Of a stretch of DNA of 64,000 bases, positions 1,786-18,697 are shown piece after piece. The stretch comes from Promethearchaeota archaeon. GTDB lineage: Archaea > Asgardarchaeota > Lokiarchaeia > Sigyniarchaeales > SOKP01. Made by a program: the position numbers and the translations under genes. Positions within the stretch are counted from its first letter, which is position 1. Each line of letters opens with the position of its first letter. The notes beneath the pieces are model-generated. The model did not search any database. It saw nothing but the letters and a program-made list of their open reading frames with translations, and was not told the DNA's origin. The stretch spans positions 33,946-97,945 of the forward strand of contig JBHLOF010000004.1 of NCBI GenBank assembly GCA_048940805.1. Reading direction: 5' to 3'.

Positions 1786-2196
1786 ATAACGAAGGACACT
1801 AAAATTATTACTATTGATAACCGGGGAAGGATTGTATTACCACTGATAACAAGAAAGAATCTCGGGATTACCGAAAATTCGCAGTTGATGTTAGTGAGTG
1901 ACTCTGAAACGAAAGAAATACGAATAACACCCGTTGGAATCACAAAAGATGAAAAACCAATCAAATTCAAAATTACTATGAATGATGAACCCGGTTCTCT
2001 AGGTAAGATTGCCAATGTTTTTGGCGATCTTGGCATTTCTTTAATGTATGGGGAAAGCGTTATTATTGAAAAATCAAAAACAGCGATTTGGACGGTAATA
2101 AGTCCTACTCCCACACATATTTCCCTTGAGGAACTAAGAGAAAATCTGATGACTAACGGGAAAGCTGTGAATGTTGAGATTATACCCTTTGATTAA
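1786..2196 (+). CDS. SpoVT/AbrB-like domain fused to an ACT domain (true start unresolved)
   Basis: The ORF track begins at TTG 1885. The same frame is open from 1786 and encodes 'KIITIDNRGRIVLPLITRKNLGITENSQLMLV', a SpoVT/AbrB swapped-hairpin signature. Downstream, 'ITMNDEPGSLGKIANVFGDLGISL' is ACT-like. Confidence 0.6.
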   Translation: MTKDTKIITIDNRGRIVLPLITRKNLGITENSQLMLVSDSETKEIRITPVGITKDEKPIKFKITMNDEPGSLGKIANVFGDLGISLMYGESVIIEKSKTAIWTVISPTPTHISLEELRENLMTNGKAVNVEIIPFD

Positions 2197-2219: not shown

Positions 2220-3065
2220 GTGGTTATGGGGAAGAAGAAAAAGAAAGAAAAAAAGAAAAAAATAGAAGATAATACTGAAGATATAGCAGTAACACCTGAA
2301 TATTCACTAGATGTAGCGTTACATTCCACGAAAACGACAGAAACAACTTTACAGAGTTTAATGAGGGAAGTTTCTGAAGAGAAAGGATTTGTTAAAAAAG
2401 AGCAAGAAAAAATTCGACCCCAATTATCCCATGAAAGTAAAAGTGAAATCGCGGAAGCTTATGCTTTAGAGGATGTCCCAATAGCAGAGAGAAAAAAAAC
2501 TCAGAAGCGAGAGAGACCCCCACTTGTTTCCGAATCAAAAAATTTAGTGAAGCCCATGGAGTCCAAAGAGCAAGAGTTAAAAACTAAACCAAAAATACAG
2601 GTAGAAGTCACAACAGTTCCCACTCCTGTTGAAAAAAAACCATCAGTGTCTAGTGAAGATGTAGCTCCCTCACCTATCATTGAGGAAACTCTCGGTATTA
2701 AAAAAGAAAATATCTATCTTAAATTATCAGAGTTTTTTGAGGATCTACTGGGAGGTTATAGTGCGAGGTATGAAAGGTGGGAAAATTCGATATCTAACAT
2801 TCTGGCAATTATGAGGAAAATGAGAAAGATAACAAAGAAAAATACTGAGGATTTAACAATTAGTATTCAAAATTTATTTGGGAAAATCCAAAATCAGTTA
2901 GAACTTTTCAAAGTTAAACGTGATGAAGTTGAAAAAGTAGCCGAAGTAGACATTGAATCAATGTCAGGTGAGTTAAAAAGAGTAATGGGATTGCTTGAAT
3001 TACAGGTCAAAGAATATCGATTGAAAAGAGAAACAGATGAATTAATCCATGCATTAAAATACTGA
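2220..3065 (+). CDS. K/E-rich low-complexity protein with helical C-terminal domain, function unknown
   Basis: Poly-Lys N-terminus (MGKKKKKEKKKK; ATG at 2226), a long charged linker and a predicted helical C-terminal ~110 aa. It lies 49 nt upstream of the actin-family gene on the same strand. Confidence 0.5.
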   Translation: MVMGKKKKKEKKKKIEDNTEDIAVTPEYSLDVALHSTKTTETTLQSLMREVSEEKGFVKKEQEKIRPQLSHESKSEIAEAYALEDVPIAERKKTQKRERPPLVSESKNLVKPMESKEQELKTKPKIQVEVTTVPTPVEKKPSVSSEDVAPSPIIEETLGIKKENIYLKLSEFFEDLLGGYSARYERWENSISNILAIMRKMRKITKKNTEDLTISIQNLFGKIQNQLELFKVKRDEVEKVAEVDIESMSGELKRVMGLLELQVKEYRLKRETDELIHALKY

Positions 3066-3114
3066 TTATCACTGTTTTTCAGTTTAATATAAAATTAATA
3101 AATTTATATTTGCC

Positions 3115-4293
3115 ATGGCATCTGAAATCAAAAGTCAAACTCGACCACTTATACTCGATATTGGGAGTAATTTTTTTCGATTAGGATGGGCAGGAAGTGA
3201 TTATCCTGAAGTTATTGCCCCGAGTATCTATGTAAATAATACAGATTATTTATTTACCTCAGATGTAATTGATGGTTTAGAAGATATATTTGTGGGAGAG
3301 GATAATGTCGAGAATCAGTTATTTGGCCATGAAGCTTTAAAATATTCAAATGTGCTTAAAGTGCATGAAGTAAAGAGTAATTATAATATTTTGATGAAAT
3401 ATTTTCATTTTCATTATAAACAACTTGAAATTGAGAATGAATATCTTTTCAAACAGCCAATTATCATTATTATTCCTTTCTTTATGTCAGAAATAGAGAA
3501 AACAAAATTATCTGAGATGTTTTTTAACGTTTTTGATTTTCCTGCGTTATTTTTTTTACCGGATAGTCAAGGAGTGTTAGGTATATTACAAAAATCCAGT
3601 GGAGTGATTATAAATATGGGAGACGCGAACACATACATTACATCTTTTCTCCATGGCTTTACTAACATAATGGCAAGAGACACATACCCAATTGCAGGAA
3701 AGGACCTTACAGATGCGCTTCTAAATATGCTTTTAAAGGGATCCGCTAAGAACTTATATCTTGATTATATGATTGCAAAAGAAATTAAAGAAAAACTCGC
3801 ATTTTGCGCATTAAATCCTGAAGAAGAATTAAAAAGGATAAAGGATGGTCTAACTAAATTCAAGAGTGCAGTTGATTTACCTGATGGTTCGAAACTTGAA
3901 ATTAATTCAGAAAGAATCCAACTTGTAGAACCCTTATTTAATCCTTCAGTAATTCATATGGATTATATTAGTTTACCTGAGGCTGTAGTAAATGTTATCC
4001 GAACATGGGATCGGGAGGATTGGAGTGAACTATTACCAAATATTGTTCTTGCTGGCGGTGCTAGTTTAATCCCTGGATTAGAAAAAAGGTTAAAAATTGA
4101 AATTTCGAAGTTCTTTTCTGAACGATTAAGAGATAAAATTAATATAATTGCTACTACCGGAAGAGATACAATTAGTTGGGTTGGAGCAAGTGTACTGTGG
4201 GCTCAAGGAAAACTAACAAAAGGGTGGAGCTATAATCCCAATGCTCCAACTGAAGAAAAAAGTTCCAAAAATAATGATCTAAATTCTAATTGA
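3115..4293 (+). CDS. actin-family ATPase, divergent actin-related protein (Arp-like)
   Basis: Actin-fold motifs in the correct order: phosphate-1 'LILDIGSNFFRLGWAGSDYPEVIAPS', phosphate-2 'GVIINMGDANTYITSF', adenosine 'VLAGGASLIPGLEKRL', and connect-2 'WVGASVLWAQ'. Confidence 0.85.
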   Translation: MASEIKSQTRPLILDIGSNFFRLGWAGSDYPEVIAPSIYVNNTDYLFTSDVIDGLEDIFVGEDNVENQLFGHEALKYSNVLKVHEVKSNYNILMKYFHFHYKQLEIENEYLFKQPIIIIIPFFMSEIEKTKLSEMFFNVFDFPALFFLPDSQGVLGILQKSSGVIINMGDANTYITSFLHGFTNIMARDTYPIAGKDLTDALLNMLLKGSAKNLYLDYMIAKEIKEKLAFCALNPEEELKRIKDGLTKFKSAVDLPDGSKLEINSERIQLVEPLFNPSVIHMDYISLPEAVVNVIRTWDREDWSELLPNIVLAGGASLIPGLEKRLKIEISKFFSERLRDKINIIATTGRDTISWVGASVLWAQGKLTKGWSYNPNAPTEEKSSKNNDLNSN

Positions 4294-4312
4294 AGAAAAG
4301 GAAGCAACTATT

Positions 4313-6916
4313 TTGAGTGTCAACTTAGAGATTAATAAAGAGTTTTTAGAGGACTTCCAGAAAAAAATTATCATAGCACGTAAATTACTGTTTTCTGCAA
4401 ATCATAAATGGGCGTCAAAATTACTCGATAATTTAGGTATGGCAATCGAGAAAAACGATTGGCTAGACATACAGAAAAAGCATCAATTAAATATGATCAT
4501 TTCGAATTCATGGTGGATTTATTTAAATTCTCTGGTAAAAAGAAAAGAGGGAAAAGTTGAAATCGACCTTATAAGGTATATTGATGCATATAAACGATTT
4601 TTCGCCTTTTTAACAAGTTTAGATGATTCTTATTTATTTTATAATTTTGGAATAAATCTTCTTATGCAATTTATTACGATGGAGGATTTATCGCAGATTG
4701 GGATAACAAAATACATAAATTCCTTTTCTGTTGAGTTAGAAAAAAGAGAAGAATATCAAAAGTTAATCGAATTACAAATTTTATTAATACATTTAAGACA
4801 ATCAGTTAGTCCATCAGAGCATTTCCATCTAGGTATGGAGATTCTTGGAAAAACTATACTTAAATTAGAGCCCAGTAAGAGAGCATTATTTATTTATATG
4901 ATATTAGAAAATGTATGCATAAAATATCAACTTATGGAAGATTCTTCAGAATTCATTAAATCAATAGTTAAGATTATGATAAACCGCCTTCCACAATATC
5001 TAAAAAATGAATTTAGTGGTATCAGTAGGATCTCTATTAATGAGAGAAGTTTTAACACAATCATAATCGATCTTGAAGAAACAATTAATTATTTAAATGA
5101 TATTGGGGAATATCCTTGGATTATATTTATAATTAGAAATATATTTTCAAAAATAAAAGATTACCAATCGTTTGGTGATGCAATAACATATATACGTAAA
5201 TTTATTGATTTCTCAATAAGGAGAAATCGATTTGAAATTGCGTTTGAAATCTATGATTTTTTGGAAGATCTTTTTATTTACCAAACAGACCTTTCTTATG
5301 ATAATATTTTGATCGAACTCTGGGTTGAAGCATGTAAAAAATTCGTAGATATGAAGGAGAAAAAGTATTTATTACAGTCTCTTGAAAAATTGAATAATCA
5401 TCTAAAGATACCTCAAACAAGTGCTGAAATTTTTCATTATTTTTATACCTGTGATAAACTGTGGCAATTTAAATCAATGTTCTTTTCATTAGAGCAACGA
5501 GATTTCTGGAGAATGATGTTTTATCGAGCTTTATTCGAGGAAAAAAACTTTAACATTGCTCAGAAAATCGTTCCTTATCTTGATAAGGATTTAGGATCAT
5601 TATTATCCGATATAATTTCACTATCTAAAGAGGCAGAATCCTTTAAGGAAAAGATATACTCATTTGGCACGGAGGAAGATTTTCGTGTATTAGATGATAA
5701 AAATTTCGTAATAAAAGATATAATAATTCGGATTAATTCAATTGGGATAATTTCATATAGAATAAATTCGACTAATAACCAAATTGTTGAAGGAACTTTA
5801 AGGAGAGAAACGTGGAATGACACCCAAATTATTGAAATTTATAATGAATTGTTTTCTGAACCAGAAAAACGAAAATTTACATTCACTTTACATGAATTTG
5901 GTGAAATATTATACATTTTTTTACCAAAATTAATCCGAGATTTCTTCAAATCTTTTAAAATAAAAAGTTTGAATATAGTACCCCAAATTTATTTTATACT
6001 TGATAGTATGACTATACCATTTGATTTAATTTATGATAATAATTTCTTTTTATTAAAATATTCAAGTGGGTATAAAATTGGAGAGATCCCTCTTGGAGGC
6101 ATAGCATTTGAACATGAATCTTTGATAAAATCTCCTTCAGTATCCTCCTCAACAAAACATAATGTCTTAATTGTTGATTCAATAAATTCTAAAATACCGT
6201 TGAGATGGAATGAAGAACTCCAAAGAAAGGAATTAATCTATCCGTTCTCAGCGGGAGCAAATGAATTGAATTATATTGTAGATTTTTTCAATAAAATTAA
6301 TGAAATCGACCAAATTAAAACACTTATCGGGCCTTCTTCAACTAGGGATGCAATTTTGACTCACGTTACAAAAGATCTTTACCATATAATTGTCATCGTT
6401 GGAAATATCTTCTATTCAAAATGGAGTCCTAAAGATAGCTTTTTTTTAACAAATGATAATGAAACTATAACTTTCAGTGAACTGTGTAGTTACTTGCATC
6501 GAAAGGATGCAAAAATTCATCCCTTTTTATTTTTTAATGCCCAAATTTTTGATATTGAGGGTCAAAAATTAAGAAATGTTGTAAGACCTTTTGGTGAAAT
6601 TATCTCACAATTTAACCAAGATGAAATTACCGGTATAATTGTAAGACCATATCCATTATTTAATGAAGAAACAAAAGAAATTATTTCCCAATTTTTTCTT
6701 AATCTCCTTAGAAATGCAAGTCAAGGAGTATCTCTTCTTAAAGCCCGTCAAAAATGTATAGCAAATAAAATGGAAAAAATGGTAGAAGACCAATTTAAAG
6801 ATACATCTATGGAGGGTGGAAGTGTAAGAATCGATTTAAGAAGTAGTTTGGCCGTCTCAAGCTATTTACTTTTTGGAAAACCATGGAAAAAATTAAATTC
6901 TGAATCAAGGATATAA
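4313..6916 (+). CDS. large helical-repeat (TPR-like) protein with C-terminal CHAT-like (caspase-fold) domain lacking the catalytic dyad
   Basis: 867 aa. The C-terminal ~290 aa follow the CHAT layout: 'IYFILDSMTIPFDLI', 'LIGPSSTRDAILTHV..YHIIVIVGN', 'PFLFFNAQIF', and 'GIIVRPYPLFNEETKEIISQFFLNLLRNASQGVSLLKARQ'. It starts 19 nt after the actin-like gene. Confidence 0.6.
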   Translation: MSVNLEINKEFLEDFQKKIIIARKLLFSANHKWASKLLDNLGMAIEKNDWLDIQKKHQLNMIISNSWWIYLNSLVKRKEGKVEIDLIRYIDAYKRFFAFLTSLDDSYLFYNFGINLLMQFITMEDLSQIGITKYINSFSVELEKREEYQKLIELQILLIHLRQSVSPSEHFHLGMEILGKTILKLEPSKRALFIYMILENVCIKYQLMEDSSEFIKSIVKIMINRLPQYLKNEFSGISRISINERSFNTIIIDLEETINYLNDIGEYPWIIFIIRNIFSKIKDYQSFGDAITYIRKFIDFSIRRNRFEIAFEIYDFLEDLFIYQTDLSYDNILIELWVEACKKFVDMKEKKYLLQSLEKLNNHLKIPQTSAEIFHYFYTCDKLWQFKSMFFSLEQRDFWRMMFYRALFEEKNFNIAQKIVPYLDKDLGSLLSDIISLSKEAESFKEKIYSFGTEEDFRVLDDKNFVIKDIIIRINSIGIISYRINSTNNQIVEGTLRRETWNDTQIIEIYNELFSEPEKRKFTFTLHEFGEILYIFLPKLIRDFFKSFKIKSLNIVPQIYFILDSMTIPFDLIYDNNFFLLKYSSGYKIGEIPLGGIAFEHESLIKSPSVSSSTKHNVLIVDSINSKIPLRWNEELQRKELIYPFSAGANELNYIVDFFNKINEIDQIKTLIGPSSTRDAILTHVTKDLYHIIVIVGNIFYSKWSPKDSFFLTNDNETITFSELCSYLHRKDAKIHPFLFFNAQIFDIEGQKLRNVVRPFGEIISQFNQDEITGIIVRPYPLFNEETKEIISQFFLNLLRNASQGVSLLKARQKCIANKMEKMVEDQFKDTSMEGGSVRIDLRSSLAVSSYLLFGKPWKKLNSESRI

Positions 6917-7021: not shown

Positions 7022-7561
7022 ATGTCAGATCCCCGTATAATAGAACTAAGAGTTGAAAATAAGAAATTAAAACAGGAAATTGCATCTTTAGAAGAAAAGA
7101 TTTTATCTTTAGTTGGAATGTTTAATATTGAATCTTCTGGAGGGCAGGATAAAAAAAATGTACTCAATGATCAAATTTTTAATTTAATTGGATCAACAAA
7201 GGAACAACTTAATATTGTAACCCCCAAAATCGACGAATTTTATGTAAGAGAGTTGAAAAAACTTAGCCAAAAAGGAATCCCTATTCTAATGATTACGAAC
7301 GATAGAGCAAATTTGCCCAAACCTTATCGTCAAATTTATGATGATTTGAAAATTACAGAGGGGATAAGTATTATTAACAATCCAAATGTAAGGTTCTTGT
7401 TATTATTCAATATAACTCAAGCTATCTACTCTGGTGGTTCACTAGATAAAGAAGAGCTGGAAAAATCAATATTAGTAGTAACAACAATACAAGAAAAAGC
7501 AAAACTAAGAAAGATTGCAGAGATTTTCTCTTTAATGCTTCCCACTTTTATGAGGAAGTAG
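7022..7561 (+). CDS. coiled-coil protein with TrmB-C-terminal-like (inactive PLD-fold-like) domain, no HTH
   Basis: N-terminal heptad segment ('IIELRVENKKLKQEIASLEEKILSL'). It is followed by 'KEQLNIVTPKIDEFYVRELKKLSQKGIPILMITN', which resembles the TrmB regulator C-domain. The protein contains no His at all, so no HKD motif is possible. Confidence 0.4.
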   Translation: MSDPRIIELRVENKKLKQEIASLEEKILSLVGMFNIESSGGQDKKNVLNDQIFNLIGSTKEQLNIVTPKIDEFYVRELKKLSQKGIPILMITNDRANLPKPYRQIYDDLKITEGISIINNPNVRFLLLFNITQAIYSGGSLDKEELEKSILVVTTIQEKAKLRKIAEIFSLMLPTFMRK

Positions 7562-7568
7562 TAAAAAC

Positions 7569-9776
7569 TTGTTTTTTTTCAAAATGGGTCATAAAAAATC
7601 TATTAATTCTGAAACGATAGTAGAACGATTTGGTTTAGATTCAGACATTTATAAAGAGTTAATGAATTTTTTAAAAGAAAATCTTTCAAACGATTCCATT
7701 TATGAAAATAATCTAAAAGAATGGAATAAAGTTTTTACGAATATTTACGGGAATAATTTGAGTCCAGGTTTATTTTTGAAGCATACATATTTTGTCCTTA
7801 TATTAAAAATTGTTGTAGTTTATAAAATAAGTTTAGTAAAAGGCATTAACTTCGAAGAGATCTATAGTCGGTTAGCTGATATTGATAAAGAGGTATCTCA
7901 TATTTTTAATTTCAACTTTCTTTTTTGGTTTACTCCTAAAAAAGAGTTATTTGAAAAGGTGCTTAATGAGATTCAAGGCTTAGAGTTCGTAAAGGAAGAT
8001 ATCTTTAGTTATTTATATCAACATATCTTTGTTCCCGATATCAGGCATAAGAGAGGGGAATTCTTCACACCAACACGCCTTGTAAATAAGATGGTCGATA
8101 ATTCATACAAATTCGGATCAAAAGTTCTAGATCCTTCATGCGGTTCAGGTACGTTCTTAATAGGTATTATATTGAAGATTTTTGATTCTAACAAGTCAAA
8201 TCTGTCAAAATTTCAAGCATTTTCTAATGTTTTTGGTTTTGATGTGAATCCACTAGCGATAATCACAGCAAAAGCGAACATTTTCTTATTAATTATAGGA
8301 TATTTGGAGCCAAAGGATAATGCGATCTCACATATTAATATTTTCCATTGCGACTCCTTATTTCCAGAGGATTATGAGAATAAATCAGATGTTAATTTCA
8401 TCGATTTATATAATTCCTTCGATTTAATTATTGGAAATCCCCCCTGGATAACGTATAAAGATTTGAATAATAAGGCATATCAAAATAGAATTCGAGAATT
8501 AACTGATCAATTGAACATTAAACCCTCAAGTCAATACATTACTCACATTGAGTTAGCAACAGTTTTTTTTTATGCAATCCCAATCAAGTTTTTAAAAAAA
8601 AAAGGTGAAATCTTTTTTGTAATGCCTAAAAGCTGCTTGAATGGTGATCATTGCTATGAATTTAGGTCTTTTTCAATTTTTAATGCGGACCTAGAAATAT
8701 GGGATTTTCCCAATAATTACTTTTTCAATGTTGAACATGTTTGCTTAAAGGCTGAATACATTGGGATAAATGATAACATCTCAACTCGAGTACACTATCC
8801 AATTAAAGCTAAGATTTTTGATGGAAACATTAATCTTCTAAAAGAATTATCATATTCAAGTTTGAAAGTTGAGAATGATGGTGCACGGTTAATTTTGCCC
8901 GAACAAGATTTAAAAATTCTGAATCGAGTGGAAAATAGTGTTTATAAAAAAAGATTTGTTCAAGGAGCTACATTGGTCCCAAGAACACTTGTATTTTTCC
9001 AAATCAGAATAGAAAAAGATAACAGATTAATAATTGATTCTGATCCTGATGTATTATCAAGAGCAAAAGAAAAATGGATGTTCCGATTTCAAAATAAAGA
9101 AATTGAAGATAAATTCCATTTTAAAACATTTTTAAATATACATCTAATCCCATTTCATATAAAAATATTAAAAGATGTGTTTCTTCCAGTGGATGAGCAC
9201 CTTATGTTTAATATTGAATTTTTAAAACGCAATCCAAAAGCTTTTGAATTCTATAATGAAATAAATAATTTTTATCTAGAGAACAAAAAAGAAACAAGTG
9301 ATATTAATACCTTATCTGATAATTTAAATTATTGGAATAAATTGCAAAAGCAAGTAAATAATAAATCATTTATTGTTGTTTATAATGCTAGTGGCTCTAA
9401 TTTAAAAGCCGCGGTTATAAATAATGAGGATCAGAAAGTGATAATTGGATCTGAGAATTACTATCTTTCAACCGATTCAGAAGAAGAAGCTTATTATTTA
9501 TCTGCAATTTTGAATGCTCCCAATCTTTCAAGGAATATAAAGATAATAAAAAGTTCCAGGCACATACATAAACGACCCTTTAATTTCCCGATTCCTAATT
9601 ATAATCAAAATAATATAATTCATAAAAAATTAGCAAAAAAGGGAAAAAATTGTCATGTAGTAGTGCAAGAGTTATTTATGAATAATCCGAAAATTACTTC
9701 TAAAAAGGTAAGAATTTTCATTAATAGAAAGTTAGTAAAAATAGAAGAATTGACAGATAAGATTGTCTTCAAATAA
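7569..9776 (+). CDS. N6-adenine DNA methyltransferase (gamma-class, Eco57I/TaqI-like) with C-terminal target-recognition region
   Basis: Motif I 'VLDPSCGSGTFLI', 'FGFDVNPLAI', and motif IV 'DLIIGNPPWITYKD', in the order I then IV. An alternative ATG start exists at 7584. Confidence 0.85.
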   Translation: MFFFKMGHKKSINSETIVERFGLDSDIYKELMNFLKENLSNDSIYENNLKEWNKVFTNIYGNNLSPGLFLKHTYFVLILKIVVVYKISLVKGINFEEIYSRLADIDKEVSHIFNFNFLFWFTPKKELFEKVLNEIQGLEFVKEDIFSYLYQHIFVPDIRHKRGEFFTPTRLVNKMVDNSYKFGSKVLDPSCGSGTFLIGIILKIFDSNKSNLSKFQAFSNVFGFDVNPLAIITAKANIFLLIIGYLEPKDNAISHINIFHCDSLFPEDYENKSDVNFIDLYNSFDLIIGNPPWITYKDLNNKAYQNRIRELTDQLNIKPSSQYITHIELATVFFYAIPIKFLKKKGEIFFVMPKSCLNGDHCYEFRSFSIFNADLEIWDFPNNYFFNVEHVCLKAEYIGINDNISTRVHYPIKAKIFDGNINLLKELSYSSLKVENDGARLILPEQDLKILNRVENSVYKKRFVQGATLVPRTLVFFQIRIEKDNRLIIDSDPDVLSRAKEKWMFRFQNKEIEDKFHFKTFLNIHLIPFHIKILKDVFLPVDEHLMFNIEFLKRNPKAFEFYNEINNFYLENKKETSDINTLSDNLNYWNKLQKQVNNKSFIVVYNASGSNLKAAVINNEDQKVIIGSENYYLSTDSEEEAYYLSAILNAPNLSRNIKIIKSSRHIHKRPFNFPIPNYNQNNIIHKKLAKKGKNCHVVVQELFMNNPKITSKKVRIFINRKLVKIEELTDKIVFK

Positions 9777-9782
9777 AAAATT

Positions 9783-12700
9783 TCAAGCAAATTTTTCTTT
9801 CCACTCATCTAACGCATCAAGAAATTCTTTTTTGACTTTGTCTTCTAATATAGACCTTGTGGATCTTAATCGGCTAATCCATTGTCTTATTACATTTGCA
9901 GTAACAGCACCATGAGATTTCAATACTATATCTGAAATTTCTTGAAGGGAAATTGATAATATATTCCCTGGTGAAAGTTCTGTGTCTTGAATCAATTTAT
10001 CAATTAAAGAACTTAATCTACTACCACTATTAAAAGAGATTTCCAAATCTGGACTTTCAATTGAAGGCCCAAAATCTAATGATTGATTATTCTCATCTTC
10101 CTTAACGTATTTTTCTTTCCACTTGAAAAACACCATTACAAAATCTTCTTTAATCTCGCCACTGAGTGGATTCTTGATTTTACGGAGTTTGCTAACCCAA
10201 TCTTTTATATCTTTTAGAATCACAGAATATCCTTCTGTTTCCAAAATAATATCAACTATATTTTGCATACATTTACTGATGTCAATTCCACTTAATTCTG
10301 AGAAATTTTTTTCAATAGTCTCAAAATTTTCTCTTAATTCTGATGAAGGATCCTTCTTACTTGATTCTACGCTTCCAGTTATAGGCGAAATATTGTCATC
10401 TGTTTGGAATTGAGATTGAGACAAACCAGGACTAAAATATTCTTCTTCATAAACAGAAATTGAATTTTCTGCCTTTGATTTAGAAGCTGAAGGATTAATA
10501 GAAGACTGATCAACTCTTGATGAGTCACTTGGATGAGTGTGATTCAATATTCCCCATTTCCACCTTAATAAATCACTTTTAATTTGTTCTCTCTTTGATT
10601 CTTCCAAGATTTCATCGGTATCTGTCAAATTTTTCTTCCATTTGATAATTTGGGGATATCCTTGTAATTCTAGAACTACTTCAACTAATTTTTCAATCTG
10701 TTCTTTTAATTCTTTCTCGCTAAATTCTCCTATTTTTTTAAGAAAGATTTCAAATGTTTTATTGATTTTATCGGGATCGACCGTTTCAACTTTATATTCT
10801 TCCGAAATCATTTCCTCCTCTAAATCTTTTTGAACTCGTTCTTCGATTAGGGGGGGTCGGAATTCAGGGGGATAAATTAATTCAGTAGAGGAAAATTCAC
10901 TATTCAATCTATTAAGTTCATTAATAACATATTCTTTCAATTCATCAGATAAGGGAGTAAAAAGCTTCTCTATTTTTCCAATCAGTAATTTAAGCTCTAA
11001 TAAGTTAAGCGAGATTCCATTATTTTCAAAAGCAACGTCTAATAGCTTTTTTAATCTTTTAGCTATTTTTCTACCGGAATATTCATTTATATTTTCAATA
11101 ACTTCATTAAATCCTTTATTAATTTGGACATCTCTAGAAGGAAGAGCTTCATTTTTAATTTTAGATACAATTGGAATAAATAGATCAATCAACGGCCTAA
11201 AAGTAGTGTAAAAGCCGATTATATCATAATAAGGTTTCTGATCAATTTTTTGAAAAATTCCAAAAACCAAGTATGATTTATCCCCCAAAATCGCAATTGA
11301 TTTATTATCTAATAATCTTAAATAATCAAAATTTGGCTTTTCCCTAATAGCTGATGCATATTTGTTATTATGATCTTCCGATGAAATAAATGTGATATGT
11401 GGACCCATGTAATCAACTTTTTTATTCATTATTTTCTCTAAAGAAGATTTTTCTAATTCATTATTATCAGATGAATTTTCTGTTGTTTCTTCTATCTCCA
11501 CCTCTACTTTTAGAGTATATTCTTTTTTCCACTTTTCTATATGTTCTAAAAGTAAATACTGAGTATTTGAATCTAAATGTTTTCTAATGACTAACAACCT
11601 ATTTAACCACCCTTGTATGCTCTCGATAACTACCGATTCAGGATGAATTTCAGATATTTTTGACAATACTTCAGCAATATGATGACTGATTTCAAATCCT
11701 TTAAGCTCAGATACTTTTTTTGATACATTATCTAGCATTTGTTCAAATTCTTGCTTATGCTGCTTTGAAATGGATAGTTGTTTTTTCTGAGGTTTTTGAG
11801 GTTTAGTCTGAGTTTTCTCGCTTAGTGAAAATTCACTTTTTGTTTCAGCAAAAGAATCTAGATTTAATTTCTCTAGTGGAATAAAATTTGATAAACTGGG
11901 AACGATGATAGTTAACTCCTCTGTCGATTTATCAATTAAGATTGACACAATCTCTCTAATTTTCTCATAACTACTCACAGACAATAATTTCTCAAACACA
12001 AAACCATCGTTGCTGATGTAATCAGTTAGAATGTTGTATAATGACCTTTCTAACTTTTCAAATTTTCGAGCACTCAAGGAACTCTGTCCACCAGGTTTAA
12101 GAGAGAGTTCATTTATTCTTTTGTTAAGTGATTCACCTAAGTTTCTAATGAAGGTCTTAAAAGCATCAACTTGTTGAGGATTATCTGGATTCTCCATATC
12201 TTTTACGATAGCTCTAAATTGGGAAAACATATTTCCTGCAATTTCTTCAGATTCACTTACTTTTTTCTTAACAGCTGTGATCAACTTATTAATATCTCTA
12301 GCATCTATGGCTGACTGATTCTTTAGTGGGGTAATTAATTTGATTATATCAGTAAGGATTACTTCAGCAAACTTCTTAACATTTAGTTCAACTTCAGATA
12401 AAACTTCAGTTGTCTGACTGGTGTTGCTCTGATCGCATGTAGCATCAAGTAAATCTTGACTGATTCTTTCGAGATCTTGAAATAAATCATCTTGAAATTT
12501 TTCTAGATTTGAATCTTGCTTTACTTCATTTTTTTGAGCTTCAGAGGATTCTTCTATTAATTCTGTTATACTATTTAATATAGCCGCAATAGGGGGAATT
12601 GTAACATAATGAGGTAAAGAAGATGATGTCTGAAGGAGTAATTTTTTCTCAACAAGATTATCAATAATTTGTTGTATCTCTTCTTCTGATTGTTCACTCA

Positions 12701-12806
12701 TCATAGCTTTTATTTCATCCAAAGTTAGAGGAACTTTTCTCATACTCTCAGAATAAAGCTTAATTTCTTTATCAGAAAGATTAAACGATTTCAAAAGGGC
12801 TCTCAT
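9783..12806 (-). CDS. 1007-aa TrmB-like winged-helix protein with coiled coils, TrmB-C-like segments and four copies of a ~55-aa two-Trp repeat module
   Basis: N-terminus 'FNLSDKEIKLYSESMRKVPLTLDEIKAMM..IIDNLVEKKLL' matches the TrmB-type wHTH pattern. Internal repeats are listed in the findings. Confidence 0.6.
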   Translation of the reverse strand: MRALLKSFNLSDKEIKLYSESMRKVPLTLDEIKAMMSEQSEEEIQQIIDNLVEKKLLLQTSSSLPHYVTIPPIAAILNSITELIEESSEAQKNEVKQDSNLEKFQDDLFQDLERISQDLLDATCDQSNTSQTTEVLSEVELNVKKFAEVILTDIIKLITPLKNQSAIDARDINKLITAVKKKVSESEEIAGNMFSQFRAIVKDMENPDNPQQVDAFKTFIRNLGESLNKRINELSLKPGGQSSLSARKFEKLERSLYNILTDYISNDGFVFEKLLSVSSYEKIREIVSILIDKSTEELTIIVPSLSNFIPLEKLNLDSFAETKSEFSLSEKTQTKPQKPQKKQLSISKQHKQEFEQMLDNVSKKVSELKGFEISHHIAEVLSKISEIHPESVVIESIQGWLNRLLVIRKHLDSNTQYLLLEHIEKWKKEYTLKVEVEIEETTENSSDNNELEKSSLEKIMNKKVDYMGPHITFISSEDHNNKYASAIREKPNFDYLRLLDNKSIAILGDKSYLVFGIFQKIDQKPYYDIIGFYTTFRPLIDLFIPIVSKIKNEALPSRDVQINKGFNEVIENINEYSGRKIAKRLKKLLDVAFENNGISLNLLELKLLIGKIEKLFTPLSDELKEYVINELNRLNSEFSSTELIYPPEFRPPLIEERVQKDLEEEMISEEYKVETVDPDKINKTFEIFLKKIGEFSEKELKEQIEKLVEVVLELQGYPQIIKWKKNLTDTDEILEESKREQIKSDLLRWKWGILNHTHPSDSSRVDQSSINPSASKSKAENSISVYEEEYFSPGLSQSQFQTDDNISPITGSVESSKKDPSSELRENFETIEKNFSELSGIDISKCMQNIVDIILETEGYSVILKDIKDWVSKLRKIKNPLSGEIKEDFVMVFFKWKEKYVKEDENNQSLDFGPSIESPDLEISFNSGSRLSSLIDKLIQDTELSPGNILSISLQEISDIVLKSHGAVTANVIRQWISRLRSTRSILEDKVKKEFLDALDEWKEKFA

Positions 12807-16599: not shown

Positions 16600-17214
16600 T
16601 TGCCTAGCCGTCGTGGGGATGGAACACTTGTATTCAAAATTTGTTTTTATGGACCTTCACTTGGGGGAAAAACTACCGCACTTGATTGGGTTTATCGTCG
16701 TGAAGGTTTAGCTTCAGGTGATATGCAACAAATTCAAGACCCAACAGGACGTACTTTGTTTTTTGATCGGGTAGTAGCAAGAGTTTCTAATGTTGTGTTC
16801 CAGGTTTATACAGTTGCAGGTCAGAGACGTCACAAATTTCAAAGACAAACGGTATTGAAGGGAACTGACGCAGTCATATTCACATGGGATTCTTTAATAG
16901 ATCAATGGGAAGAAGATATGTGGTCTCTTAAAGAACTGCTCAGATTCTACGGAGATAAATTAATCCCTCCCGAAGCTTTCGCCCCACCAGAGGTACCTCT
17001 TGTATTGTTAGCAAACAAACGTGATTTAGTAGATATCGTGGAGATTTCTAAAATACGGAAAGTCTTAGATGTCGCCAGGCTAAATCACTGTTTAATTTAT
17101 GAAACGATTGCGATCCAAGGAATTAATGTAAAACGGGCTTTTGTATATGCAGCCCGTCAAGCAGTGCTTAATCATTATAAAAAACTTTCAGGAAAGTCAA
17201 TGGAAGAAACCTAA
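16600..17214 (+). CDS. MglA-type small Ras-superfamily GTPase
   Basis: P-loop 'YGPSLGGKTT', 'GRTLFFD', G3 'TVAGQ' (Thr instead of the Ras Asp) and G4 'NKRD'. Layout is collinear with bacterial MglA. Confidence 0.8.
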   Translation: MPSRRGDGTLVFKICFYGPSLGGKTTALDWVYRREGLASGDMQQIQDPTGRTLFFDRVVARVSNVVFQVYTVAGQRRHKFQRQTVLKGTDAVIFTWDSLIDQWEEDMWSLKELLRFYGDKLIPPEAFAPPEVPLVLLANKRDLVDIVEISKIRKVLDVARLNHCLIYETIAIQGINVKRAFVYAARQAVLNHYKKLSGKSMEET

Positions 17215-17250: not shown

Positions 17251-17781
17251 TTATAAATATATTATCTCTGGCTCAATCTTCTCTTTTGATATCTTCAATA
17301 ATCCATAGGAATTAACGCTAGTAAAAACTTTATCGGTTGGTGTCCCGGGACTGATATACCATTTTCCATCCATCCATTTCTCTGCAAATGGTCTATGAAC
17401 ATGACCAAATATAATTATATCATACGTAGCTAACTCAGGTATCTCACTCAATCTTTCTATTATATCTTTTGGACCACCAGTTCCATGTGTTATAAAAATT
17501 TTATGTCCTAATAATTCCAATTCTGTAGTTTTAGGCAAGTTTCCTTTTACTTGTTGGCTGTCCATGTTACCTTGAATTGCGATCACTTTATCTTTTCCAA
17601 ACTTTTCGTAAAGGTTTTTTAATATATTCAATTTAACAAAATCCCCCAAATGAATTAGATAGTCAATATTTTTGTCTTCAAAATCAGTAATAATTTTTTG
17701 GGGAATTTCAGAAGCTTGAGAAGGAATATGAGTATCTCCAATTAAACCAATCAATATCTCTTTTTTATTAGTCTCAACCAT
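17251..17781 (-). CDS. metallophosphoesterase, YfcE/MJ0936 family
   Basis: 'IGDTHIP', 'HLGDF', 'GNMD' and 'GHVHRP' motifs in order. Length is ~176 aa. Confidence 0.85.
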   Translation of the reverse strand: MVETNKKEILIGLIGDTHIPSQASEIPQKIITDFEDKNIDYLIHLGDFVKLNILKNLYEKFGKDKVIAIQGNMDSQQVKGNLPKTTELELLGHKIFITHGTGGPKDIIERLSEIPELATYDIIIFGHVHRPFAEKWMDGKWYISPGTPTDKVFTSVNSYGLLKISKEKIEPEIIYL

Positions 17782-18697
17782 TTTTTTCCGCTTCCTTCAT
17801 TTTTGTCTTAGCAACTCTTAAAGCGTGGTTAATAACTTCTTCGAGATTGTTCCACTTTCCCATGTTTATCATTTCTTTAATCCAATAAAAGAGATCTTGA
17901 TTTATAGGAACAGTTGTGAAAATTGGTTTTAGAGCTTGTTCCTCTTCAGAATTTGCCTTGTTCAATAGCCATGATATAATATTTCCAACTAATTTGAAAT
18001 TATCAGCCGCTCGAATCCCGTAAGATTCATTCAAACCAGAGAAAAGAGACATATTTCCAATTGCTACAACCTTGCCTAAATAATAATGAGAGACACCGAT
18101 AATGGGGAGATGTTGGTCGGATTTATCGTGCCATCCATTTCCATCCAAACAGCTATGCCATGAAGTAACCTCAGAGGAATAAGCTATTGCGTTGACATCC
18201 ATATTTTCATTCTCTATTGATTTGTCGATCTTTAAAGTACATCCATTTGAATGTATAAATTGAGTAATATCTCTTGTTATGAAGTGGCTACTGAAATCTT
18301 TCACTATTGGATGAGAATTATCTGTAAAGAAATATTTATTATCAAAAAGTTTATCTGGATTAAACTCAATACCAAAATTTTTAGAAAGTTCGGAAAGATT
18401 ATTTTTGTTTTCATAATCTCCACCCCCATCATTGATAATTAAGAGACTTCCACCGTCCTTAACGTATGACACTAATTCTTTTATTTCATCCTGATCCAGA
18501 TCTGGACCTAAATAAGGCACCCCAATTATTAAAATATCATAATTATTCAGTTTTTCAAGAGTTATACCTGCTTCAATTTTCCCCAATTGGAAATTTGAAT
18601 CAAAAAGATACTGGATAAAGTCATTAAATGCATTATTTTCTATTATTAATTGATTATTATGTGTATAATCGAACCCAATCGCTATTTTCTTTGTCAT
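17774..18697 (-). CDS. DUF4350/GldG-like (class-I glutamine-amidotransferase-like fold) protein with possible C-terminal ribbon-helix-helix
   Basis: 'YDILIIGVPYLGPDLDQDEIKELVSYVKDGGSLLIINDGG' pattern. The C-terminus 'TVPINQDLFYWIKEMINMGKWNNLEEVINHALRV' is RHH-like. It overlaps the downstream phosphoesterase start by 8 nt. Confidence 0.4.
   Translation of the reverse strand: MTKKIAIGFDYTHNNQLIIENNAFNDFIQYLFDSNFQLGKIEAGITLEKLNNYDILIIGVPYLGPDLDQDEIKELVSYVKDGGSLLIINDGGGDYENKNNLSELSKNFGIEFNPDKLFDNKYFFTDNSHPIVKDFSSHFITRDITQFIHSNGCTLKIDKSIENENMDVNAIAYSSEVTSWHSCLDGNGWHDKSDQHLPIIGVSHYYLGKVVAIGNMSLFSGLNESYGIRAADNFKLVGNIISWLLNKANSEEEQALKPIFTTVPINQDLFYWIKEMINMGKWNNLEEVINHALRVAKTKMKEAEKNG

Follow-up and report, generated by a model that had tools for sequence, protein, structure and literature searches.

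Three consecutive genes at positions 2,220 to 6,916 of a 64,000-nucleotide (nt) stretch of the genome of a Promethearchaeota archaeon (contig JBHLOF010000004.1; the whole stretch is called the window below) encode an orphan adaptor-like protein, a divergent protein of the actin family and a large scaffold-like protein, named here g1, g2 and g3. Together with a fourth gene, g4, they make up a module, g1-g2-g3-g4, preceded in some lineages by a gene for an AbrB/ACT regulator. The linkage of the module genes is real and old. Sequence comparisons tip the balance slightly towards the view that the products of one operon, made of the optional regulator gene, g1, g2, g3 and g4, assemble into a dedicated hetero-oligomeric complex with a structural actin-related protein (Arp) at its centre; the individual contacts within such a complex can be proposed with much less confidence.

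Gene organization

The three genes lie on the forward strand, separated by spacers of 49 nt (g1-g2) and 19 nt (g2-g3), exactly as read in the original prediction. Open reading frames (ORFs) are listed at 2220-3065 (g1, 281 amino acids (aa), GTG start), 3115-4293 (g2, 392 aa, ATG start) and 4313-6916 (g3, 867 aa, TTG start). The figure of 281 aa first given for g1 is that of the listed ORF, but the real start is most likely the ATG at 2226 rather than the GTG at 2220, because this ATG is preceded by a Shine-Dalgarno-like AGGGG motif and agrees with a 279-aa NCBI model (P0241). In this form g1 spans 2226..3065 and measures 279 aa. A Shine-Dalgarno-like AAGGAAG motif is located 12 nt upstream of the TTG start of g3. 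At the thresholds used, 474 homologues of g1, 333 of g2 and 259 of g3 were retrieved from Asgard metagenome-assembled genomes (MAGs; Promethearchaeota, Lokiarchaeota) and from metagenomes, with 52-100% identity among the best 120 listed for each protein. With hundreds of homologues each, g1, g2 and g3 are, on sequence grounds, real genes. The window has a G+C content (GC) of about 30%, and the locus resides in the core chromosome, with gyrA/gyrB and a DEAD-box helicase gene nearby.

Conservation of the module in related genomes

GTDB species genomes were scanned with the g3 alignment, and 80 of 97 loci, featuring 54-79% identity, were kept; these are referred to as Loki-type. g2 is found directly upstream of g3 in 79 of the 80 genomes (a contig end cuts the lone exception), g1 precedes g2 in 77, and g4 directly follows g3 in 71. 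Conservation extends to the surroundings, as genes encoding a VWA protein (60/80), an ACT protein (72/80) and a 735-aa methyltransferase-like protein (69/80) belong to the same block. Because this syntenic block reaches from the VWA to the methyltransferase gene, Loki-type genomes alone are no proof of linkage, and the adjacency seen in them could reflect shared ancestry.

The NCBI locus tags of g1, g2 and g3 homologues are consecutive in more than 20 MAGs. A metagenome scan started from g4 found g3 upstream in 41 of 41 loci, g2 in 33 of 33 and g1 in 29 of 29, wherever the contig was long enough; all these loci are of the Loki type, and the scan establishes reciprocity without adding new deep lineages. 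The module is present also in the original Lokiarchaeum GC14_75 assembly (LAZR01000906.1), public since 2015. Some loci 54-74% identical to g3 are labelled Thor-, Hod-, Hermod- or Odinarchaeota. These labels derive from a single submitter series and were not trusted.

A complete block, from the VWA to the methyltransferase gene, occurs in a MAG labelled 'Candidatus Nanopelagicaceae bacterium' (DATKTW010000028.1), which is probably a mis-binned Asgard contig. In the closed chromosome of bin108 (CP070831.1) the g3 match covers residues 1-784 only and is called partial by NCBI; neither g4 nor the methyltransferase gene is found downstream, despite 8 kb of sequence, and the module may have undergone local decay or rearrangement. 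In one more locus (L052) g4 is missing between g3 and the methyltransferase gene. Insertions of 1.4-3.8 kb separate g1 from g2 in L010 and L039, and g2 from g3 in L078, leaving gene order and strand unchanged.

Distant loci

An exhaustive g3 profile search gave 94 matches in 1.8 billion representatives, which makes this a small family, and nine distant loci (L081-L089) were inspected. They encode full-length g3 relatives, 17-25% identical to g3 in the alignment matrix and 18-25% by BLASTP, in DNA of GC 0.30-0.67. An actin-family gene is immediately upstream of the g3 homologue in all nine. The spacing of the pair is very tight: in five loci (L083-L086 and L089) the g2 stop codon adjoins or overlaps the g3 start codon, and a gap of 1-4 nt is found in the other four. 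Homologues of g1, recognised by a g1 profile at E = 1e-20 to 1e-35, are likewise neighbours in every one of the nine, and g4 is present in seven. In L083 g1 has moved to just after g3. It has remained in the cluster through the rearrangement, which points to selection on linkage. The methyltransferase and VWA genes are absent from all nine loci, and the flanks are unrelated to each other (e.g. Hef, PHP, thermosome, two-component systems, GH38), so that genome-wide synteny does not explain the linkage. Pairwise identity matrices of g2 and g3 are correlated (r = 0.86, Mantel p about 2e-4) and define at least four deep lineages.

The wide Loki-type block would suit the notion that the genes are neighbours by historical accident, with no functional link. 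Against it, the four-gene core persists at 17-31% protein identity, over the whole range of base composition and between completely different flanks; the g2 and g3 frames touch or overlap in five of the nine loci; and the relocated g1 is still in the cluster. An accident is hence scarcely credible. The original prediction, which would have been undone by genes never found next to each other in related genomes, is upheld by the Loki-type, distant and reciprocal loci alike. It had counted three genes, which is too few: g4 belongs to the module as its fourth gene, and the frequent AbrB/ACT regulator gene, found upstream of g1 in the window and in the distant loci L081 and L089, brings the number to five.

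Other genes recur near the module in some distant loci. A gene encoding about 410 aa, with no Pfam match, follows g4 in L082 (11204-12433), L087 (11330-12583) and L088 (9975-11207). The products are 33-47% identical to each other and have no homologue in the window; the gene may count as a fifth module member, restricted to certain lineages. Three of the nine loci encode an oxidoreductase of the GFO/IDH/MocA family a few kb or less from the module (L084, 5793-6911; L085, 11308-12459; L089, 6453-7565), and small Arf/Roc-type GTPase genes flank the module in L087 and L089. The alignment of distant g2 proteins has no stretch conserved enough for a genome scan.

The actin-family protein g2

g2 (3115..4293, +) matches the Pfam Actin model PF00022 with 157.8 bits (E = 4.3e-46, residues 8-371 of 392; gathering cut-off 27), and the MreB or salactin models with about 17 bits. 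The best PDB sequence matches are actins (E = 9e-41), and the g2-family profile has conventional filament-forming actins, and no Arp, as its 60 best PDB matches. Because of the gap between these scores, and because all the top 60 PDB matches are actins, g2 is assigned by sequence to the actin family proper, and not to ParM, MreB, Hsp70 or sugar kinases. Grouping with sugar kinases, Hsp70 or ParM, the result set out beforehand as fatal to the original prediction, was not seen. The term Arp is used for g2 as a descriptive name only, its grouping with Arp1-Arp10 being judged by PDB matches as a proxy.

Compared with a reference sequence entered by hand, g2 is 27% identical to human beta-actin (the alignment is consistent with the PDB alignment), in keeping with the earlier view of g2 as far from a canonical actin. 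LokiActin, in comparison, is 58% identical to rabbit muscle actin (PMC12050087). This difference places g2 among the poorly understood Asgard ARPs, or asgardactins. Orthologues were found in Promethearchaeota MAGs, and some carry the Joint Genome Institute name 'actin-related protein'. Candidatus Lokiarchaeum (Ca. L.) ossiferum has lokiactin and three ARP-like paralogues of unknown function (PMC9834061); asgardactins form five clades (PMC8850707). No link was found to the three Ca. L. ossiferum ARPs measured by reverse transcription quantitative PCR, whose published primers matched none of 169 loci.

The phosphate-1 loop (nt 3154-3186), phosphate-2 loop (nt 3610-3636) and adenosine motif (nt 4048-4077), all on the + strand, can be located in g2. 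At the ATP site D11, G13, G156, D157, G301/302 and K213 are retained, whereas G15N, K18R, D154N, G158A, H161Y and K336D are substituted, and the substituted positions vary freely among deep lineages. The claim that g2 has all five actin-fold motifs is right as to the fold and the glycines, not as to several residues which contact the nucleotide or take part in catalysis. Q137 is viewed differently by two programs: HMMER pairs SQGVL with IQAVL, while in the MAFFT alignment distant lineages lack Q137. The residue is probably kept in Loki-type members; replacement by D or E in the close family, as suggested by MAFFT, was discarded on the basis of the HMMER pairing. Efficient ATP hydrolysis by g2 appears doubtful from these residues. 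The subdomain-2 (D-loop) region has a family-specific insertion of about 14 residues relative to actin, and a polar tail replaces the actin C-terminal helix.

These features bear on the question of whether the module is a dedicated filament (cytomotive) system, similar to ParMRC or to the crenactin 'arcade', in which g2 would polymerize, the poly-Lys tip of g1 would tether the filament to membrane or DNA, and g3 and g4 would regulate assembly by sequestering, capping or nucleating. Conventional actin is the actin-fold family nearest to g2, the best PDB matches of the g2-family profile are filament-forming actins, and most of the glycine and phosphate-binding scaffolding is kept. Adaptors encoded in the operon beside actin-like genes are usual in prokaryotes (ParR, Alp7R, MamJ, arcadins), and a polybasic tip suits a tether. 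On the other hand, H161, D154, G15 and G158 are not conserved and vary among deep lineages, an uncommon trait in a polymer powered by ATP hydrolysis. The D-loop insertion and the missing C-terminal helix also speak against a filament, as do the partners, which are large pseudo-enzymes and not small DNA-binding adaptors. Such a system is a possibility to be taken seriously, though not a probable one.

The scaffold-like protein g3

g3 (4313..6916, +) is predicted by AlphaFold2 with moderate confidence (predicted local distance difference test (pLDDT) 74) to form about eleven helical hairpins at aa 5-442, followed by a beta-rich middle domain and by an alpha/beta domain which ends in helices. The TPR-like superhelix corresponds to aa 1-442 (nt 4313-5638, +), the middle domain to aa 467-583, the CHAT/caspase-like domain to about aa 560-800. 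Sequence searches against PDB, with the single protein or the profile, gave nothing useful. In Foldseek searches the first PDB match is Csx29, the TPR-CHAT protein of Craspase (7zoq_A, 3e-8, then 8eey_B and 8eex_B), next come human separase (9hms_C, 1.5e-4), SAVED-CHAT (8tl0) and the TPR domain of LGN; the probability for Csx29, SAVED-CHAT and separase is 0.98-1.0. By sequence, Pfam CHAT (PF12770) was found in 11 of 20 orthologues (best E = 1.5e-7), and a search with the family profile retrieves canonical CHAT proteins, which align to its positions 650-820. With 15.3 bits, the g3 protein of the window falls short of the Pfam cut-off of 24, so that the search proposed as a check on g3 succeeds for the family but not for this member. 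Model and Foldseek matches agree with the helical repeats and the CHAT-like caspase fold described at the outset.

The protein had been called a pseudo-CHAT, and its residues bear out the prefix. The two catalytic motifs read VGN instead of AGH, with N698 (nt 6404-6406, +) in place of the catalytic His, and NAQ instead of NAC, with Q744 (nt 6542-6544, +) in place of the catalytic Cys. Six canonical CHAT proteins used as reference have AGH (SCH in one) and N[AS]C. Among 19 aligned family members, the deepest included, the His position is occupied by N, Y, S or T, the Cys position by Q, R, K or L, and no Cys is conserved within aa 460-867 in the family alignment. Because both residues are replaced in every member, g3 is, as judged from the alignment, an ancient TPR-pseudo-CHAT scaffold which is catalytically dead.

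Genes of the CHAT, PLD-like and methyltransferase kinds are characteristic of anti-virus systems, and in structure g3 comes nearest to two defence proteases, Csx29 (type III-E CRISPR) and SAVED-CHAT (CBASS). A defence or stress-signalling island is suggested also by the 735-aa downstream protein, which matches type IIG restriction-modification methyltransferase models. It is the only protein to do so: g1 to g4 have no match among PADLOC defence systems. Neither the protease nor the PLD active site is intact in any member, and no cas, CBASS or sensor genes were found in the window neighbourhood or in the nine distant loci. The module occurs as one locus per listed genome (80), in a constant core-chromosome context, and its proteins diverge together, the opposite of what is seen with defence genes, which are patchy and mobile. 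A defence island is thus very improbable, and was rejected on the PADLOC result and on the distribution of the module.

The g1 and g4 proteins

The alignment of g1 proteins reveals N-terminal invariant lysines, two conserved short motifs, a P/K/E-rich linker variable in length, and a highly conserved C-terminal region of 115 residues. K5-K8, K11 and K14 are invariant in the family alignment. The poly-Lys tip (nt 2226-2264, +) reads KKKKKEKKKK. The conserved C-terminal helical hairpin (aa 165-281, from nt 2712, +) is modelled by AlphaFold2 as a helix of 77 residues (165-241), which bears the basic patch MRKMRKITKKNT, and one of 31 residues (250-280); the remainder is disordered or of low confidence. 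Alignment and model match the layout noted earlier, a poly-Lys N-terminus, a charged linker and a helical C-terminal domain. No significant match was found in Pfam, NCBIfam or PDB, with the single sequence or the profile. Sub-threshold matches to Pfam PBC in 13 of 19 members (best 1.5e-4) look like noise due to helical composition, and were set aside.

g4 (7022..7561, +) measures 179 aa, and features an N-terminal heptad-like coiled coil followed by a PLD-like domain. Pfam PLDc_2 was found in 11 of 12 members (best E = 1.7e-6). Similarity to the nuclease NucT (6ehi) is remote (E = 0.0045), the HxK position being held by non-catalytic residues, as is similarity to the FilR1/TrmB-type regulator domain. 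In the family alignment no His or Lys is conserved at the position of the HKD motif, HxK(x)4D. The LP[ST]FMR motif is invariant (L173, P174, F176, M177, R178) and ends the protein in most members; the copy in the window is LPTFMRK (nt 7538-7558, +). Across deep lineages no other module protein is as well conserved as g4, with its 32-45% identity.

The basic residues of g1 and the fold of g4 raise the prospect of a nucleic-acid or chromatin module, in which g1 would use its long basic helix to hold the Arp, much as Arp4/actin is held by the HSA helix in INO80 and SWI/SNF, with the poly-Lys tip and the nuclease-like pseudo-PLD as DNA-contacting parts. The long helix with its basic patch, the lysine-rich tip, and the likeness of g4 to a nuclease and to a regulator domain fit this scheme, as does the AbrB-type DNA-binding regulator encoded upstream. 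In Loki-type genomes a DNA-methyltransferase-like gene follows g4, and histone and Hef genes are found near the module in L082 and L085. Yet g1 has no sequence or profile similarity to HSA or to any known domain, the poly-Lys tip is missing in two of eight distant g1 proteins, and polybasic tips bind acidic lipids equally well. The methyltransferase gene is absent from all the distant loci, and DNA-related flanking genes are inconsistent across lineages. A nucleic-acid or chromatin role is quite improbable.

A predicted complex

The slightly favoured interpretation remains a dedicated hetero-oligomeric complex around a structural Arp. g3 would serve as the platform and hold extended peptide segments, without cutting them, in its TPR superhelix and dead caspase-like cleft, in the manner of separase with securin and of TPR domains with peptide tails. 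The disordered middle of g1 and the invariant tail of g4 are the likeliest ligands, either or both. g2 would be a stable subunit as are eukaryotic Arps, a dynamic polymer being not likely, and would probably be held both by g3 and by g1, the latter through its long conserved C-terminal helix. The poly-Lys tip of g1 may attach the assembly to an anionic surface, membrane or nucleic acid, and g4 may dimerize via its N-terminal coiled coil. The proteins that g3 resembles in structure, Csx29, separase and LGN, all work by clamping partner polypeptides. Signs of a non-enzymatic role are spread over the module: His and Cys are replaced in g3, the HKD motif is lacking in g4, and G15, D154, G158, H161 and K336 are substituted in g2.

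Several points weigh against the complex. The model is derived from sequence, synteny and predicted structures of single chains, and diverse sequences are too few for an analysis of covariation between proteins. The model of g1 is of low confidence (pLDDT 58). With the ATP-site residues it keeps, plus Q137 in Loki-type members by HMMER, g2 may still bind ATP and could polymerize. More than one transcript is possible, as the g1-g2 spacer carries TATA-like AT-rich stretches and a T5 run, and the g3-g4 spacer measures 105 nt. Among the nine distant loci, only L081 and L084 carry a taxon label ('Promethearchaeota archaeon').

In a bolder version of the complex, the module would encode a prokaryotic Arp complex acting on the lokiactin cytoskeleton at membranes, similar in function to Arp2/3 or dynactin-type assemblies and possibly their forerunner. 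g2, held by the separase-like pseudo-protease scaffold, would cap, nucleate or anchor lokiactin filaments, and g1 would anchor the complex, by its poly-Lys tip, at the membrane of the cell body or of the protrusions. This is speculative and rather unlikely. If true, the use of Arps as parts of dedicated multiprotein machines would be older than eukaryotes and have its origin in Asgard archaea.

Comparison with known systems

In functional terms the closest category is that of actin-family genes with dedicated partners encoded in the same operon. The arcade of Thermoproteales (crenactin and arcadins 1-4), ParMRC, Alp7AR and MamK-MamJ likewise combine an actin-family gene with lineage-specific orphan partners, one of which is a coiled-coil protein, and docking of a partner peptide onto the actin-like protein is presumed. 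Arcadin-2 is described as a depolymerizer of crenactin (PMC12050087). Co-inheritance of the actin-like gene with its partners, typical of these systems, is a feature of the module too (79/80 Loki-type, 9/9 distant and 33/33 reciprocal loci; r = 0.86). The systems differ in that g2 belongs to the eukaryote-like PF00022 actin family, not to crenactin or ParM, and has several substitutions at the ATP site. The partners differ as well: a TPR-pseudo-CHAT protein, a pseudo-PLD and a poly-Lys protein with a disordered region and a helix have no detectable homology to arcadins, ParR or MamJ, and general searches of Pfam, NCBIfam and PDB gave no arcadin or ParR family match for g1, g3 or g4.

In its predicted structure g3 is closest to Csx29, then to separase. 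Csx29 of the type III-E Craspase has the same domain order (N-terminal TPR, middle, CHAT) and is a scaffold bound to a partner. It differs in being an active Cys-His protease bound to Cas7-11 and CRISPR RNA, whereas g3 has Asn and Gln at the catalytic positions and is coupled to an actin-family gene, with no CRISPR-Cas gene nearby; no cas-like gene (Cas7-11/gRAMP and others) or Pfam match to one was found in the window neighbourhood and the nine distant loci. Separase resembles g3 in having a large helical-repeat region followed by caspase-like domains. It contains a pseudo-protease domain, and is regulated by a disordered partner which lies along it as a pseudosubstrate; g1, similarly to securin, has a long disordered segment. 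In contrast, global superposition of g3 with separase is poor (template-modelling (TM) score 0.17-0.2, identity 8-9%), separase keeps its active site, and no cohesin or securin homologues were identified. The likeness is at the level of predicted architecture, weaker than that to Csx29, and implies no specific ancestry.

Eukaryotic Arps function as subunits of multiprotein complexes, and in some of them ATPase residues are reported to be degenerate. Arp2/3, dynactin (Arp1/Arp11) and HSA-Arp4/actin combine a divergent actin-fold protein, as a fixed subunit, with dedicated non-actin subunits, and by analogy this is what g2 appears to be; the long helix of g1 is a candidate Arp-binding element comparable to HSA. 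Differences are that the g2-family profile scores actins above every Arp in PDB, so that there is no orthology as far as tested, and that no partner of g2 is homologous to ARPC, dynactin or remodeller subunits. g2 shares phylum and Pfam family with lokiactin and the asgardactins. With 27% identity to beta-actin, against the about 58% which marks LokiActin, it does not qualify by sequence as a lokiactin. Active CHAT peptidases, Craspase, separase, HKD PLDs and lokiactin are therefore groups to which the module proteins do not belong, a defining feature being lacking in each case.

Studies of actin in Asgard archaea have dealt with lokiactin, profilins and gelsolins alone, and functions or partners of ARPs are not given in PMC9834061 and PMC8850707. 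Recent reviews are silent on ARP function, and the searchable literature reports no partner genes or operon context for any Asgard ARP. Full-text searches retrieved no paper in which a CHAT, TPR or separase-like protein is linked to any Asgard actin homologue, and no description of the g1-g4 operon; they gave no reason to amend the earlier statement that no described partnership of an actin-family protein with a CHAT-type scaffold was known. We know of no earlier case of an actin-family protein coupled to a TPR-CHAT (separase/Csx29-like) protein. The set of partners is unprecedented for an actin-family operon, and the module is composed almost wholly of dead enzymes. Its genes have been in the databases since the Lokiarchaeum assembly without being read in this way. 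The operon names three or four candidate partners for one ARP clade, opening the question of Asgard Arp function to direct experiment. A true complex would be a prokaryotic precedent for the eukaryotic use of Arps as fixed subunits of larger machines.

Upstream regulator and neighbouring genes

The optional upstream member in the window is a small ACT-domain protein (1885..2196, +; Pfam ACT, E = 2.4e-5), probably an AbrB/SpoVT-ACT regulator. Its homologue in L081 measures 137 aa and has both MazE/AbrB and ACT matches. In the window the ORF is listed from the TTG at 1885, and an AbrB/SpoVT-like motif is found in frame at 1807-1884: ITIDNRGRIVLP (ITIDNRGRIVLPLITRKNLGI). This stretch starts just past the stop codon at 1783, ahead of any ATG, GTG or TTG (window 1786-2196, +), which suggests that the gene has a non-canonical start (ATA or ATT) or that its annotation is truncated.

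The 735-aa N6-methyltransferase-like protein (7569..9776, +; Pfam N6_Mtase and Eco57I) is a lineage-specific neighbour, outside the deep core of the module. It has an NPPW motif, starts 7 nt past g4, and its PADLOC match is to the methyltransferase part of a type IIG restriction-modification enzyme (147 bits). Its presence at the same place in 69 of 80 Loki-type species is unusually stable for a gene of restriction-modification type. Convergent with it is a gene encoding 1007 aa (9783-12806, -), found in 25 of the 80 Loki-type loci; besides a weak TrmB-type helix-turn-helix at the start, no domain was recognised in the product. Farther downstream, a 307-aa protein (17774-18697, -) matches the Pfam IFT52 GIFT domain (39.5 bits against a gathering score of 27.2), close to an Arf/Ras-like small GTPase (16600-17214, +). 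Both are genes of the eukaryote-signature type.

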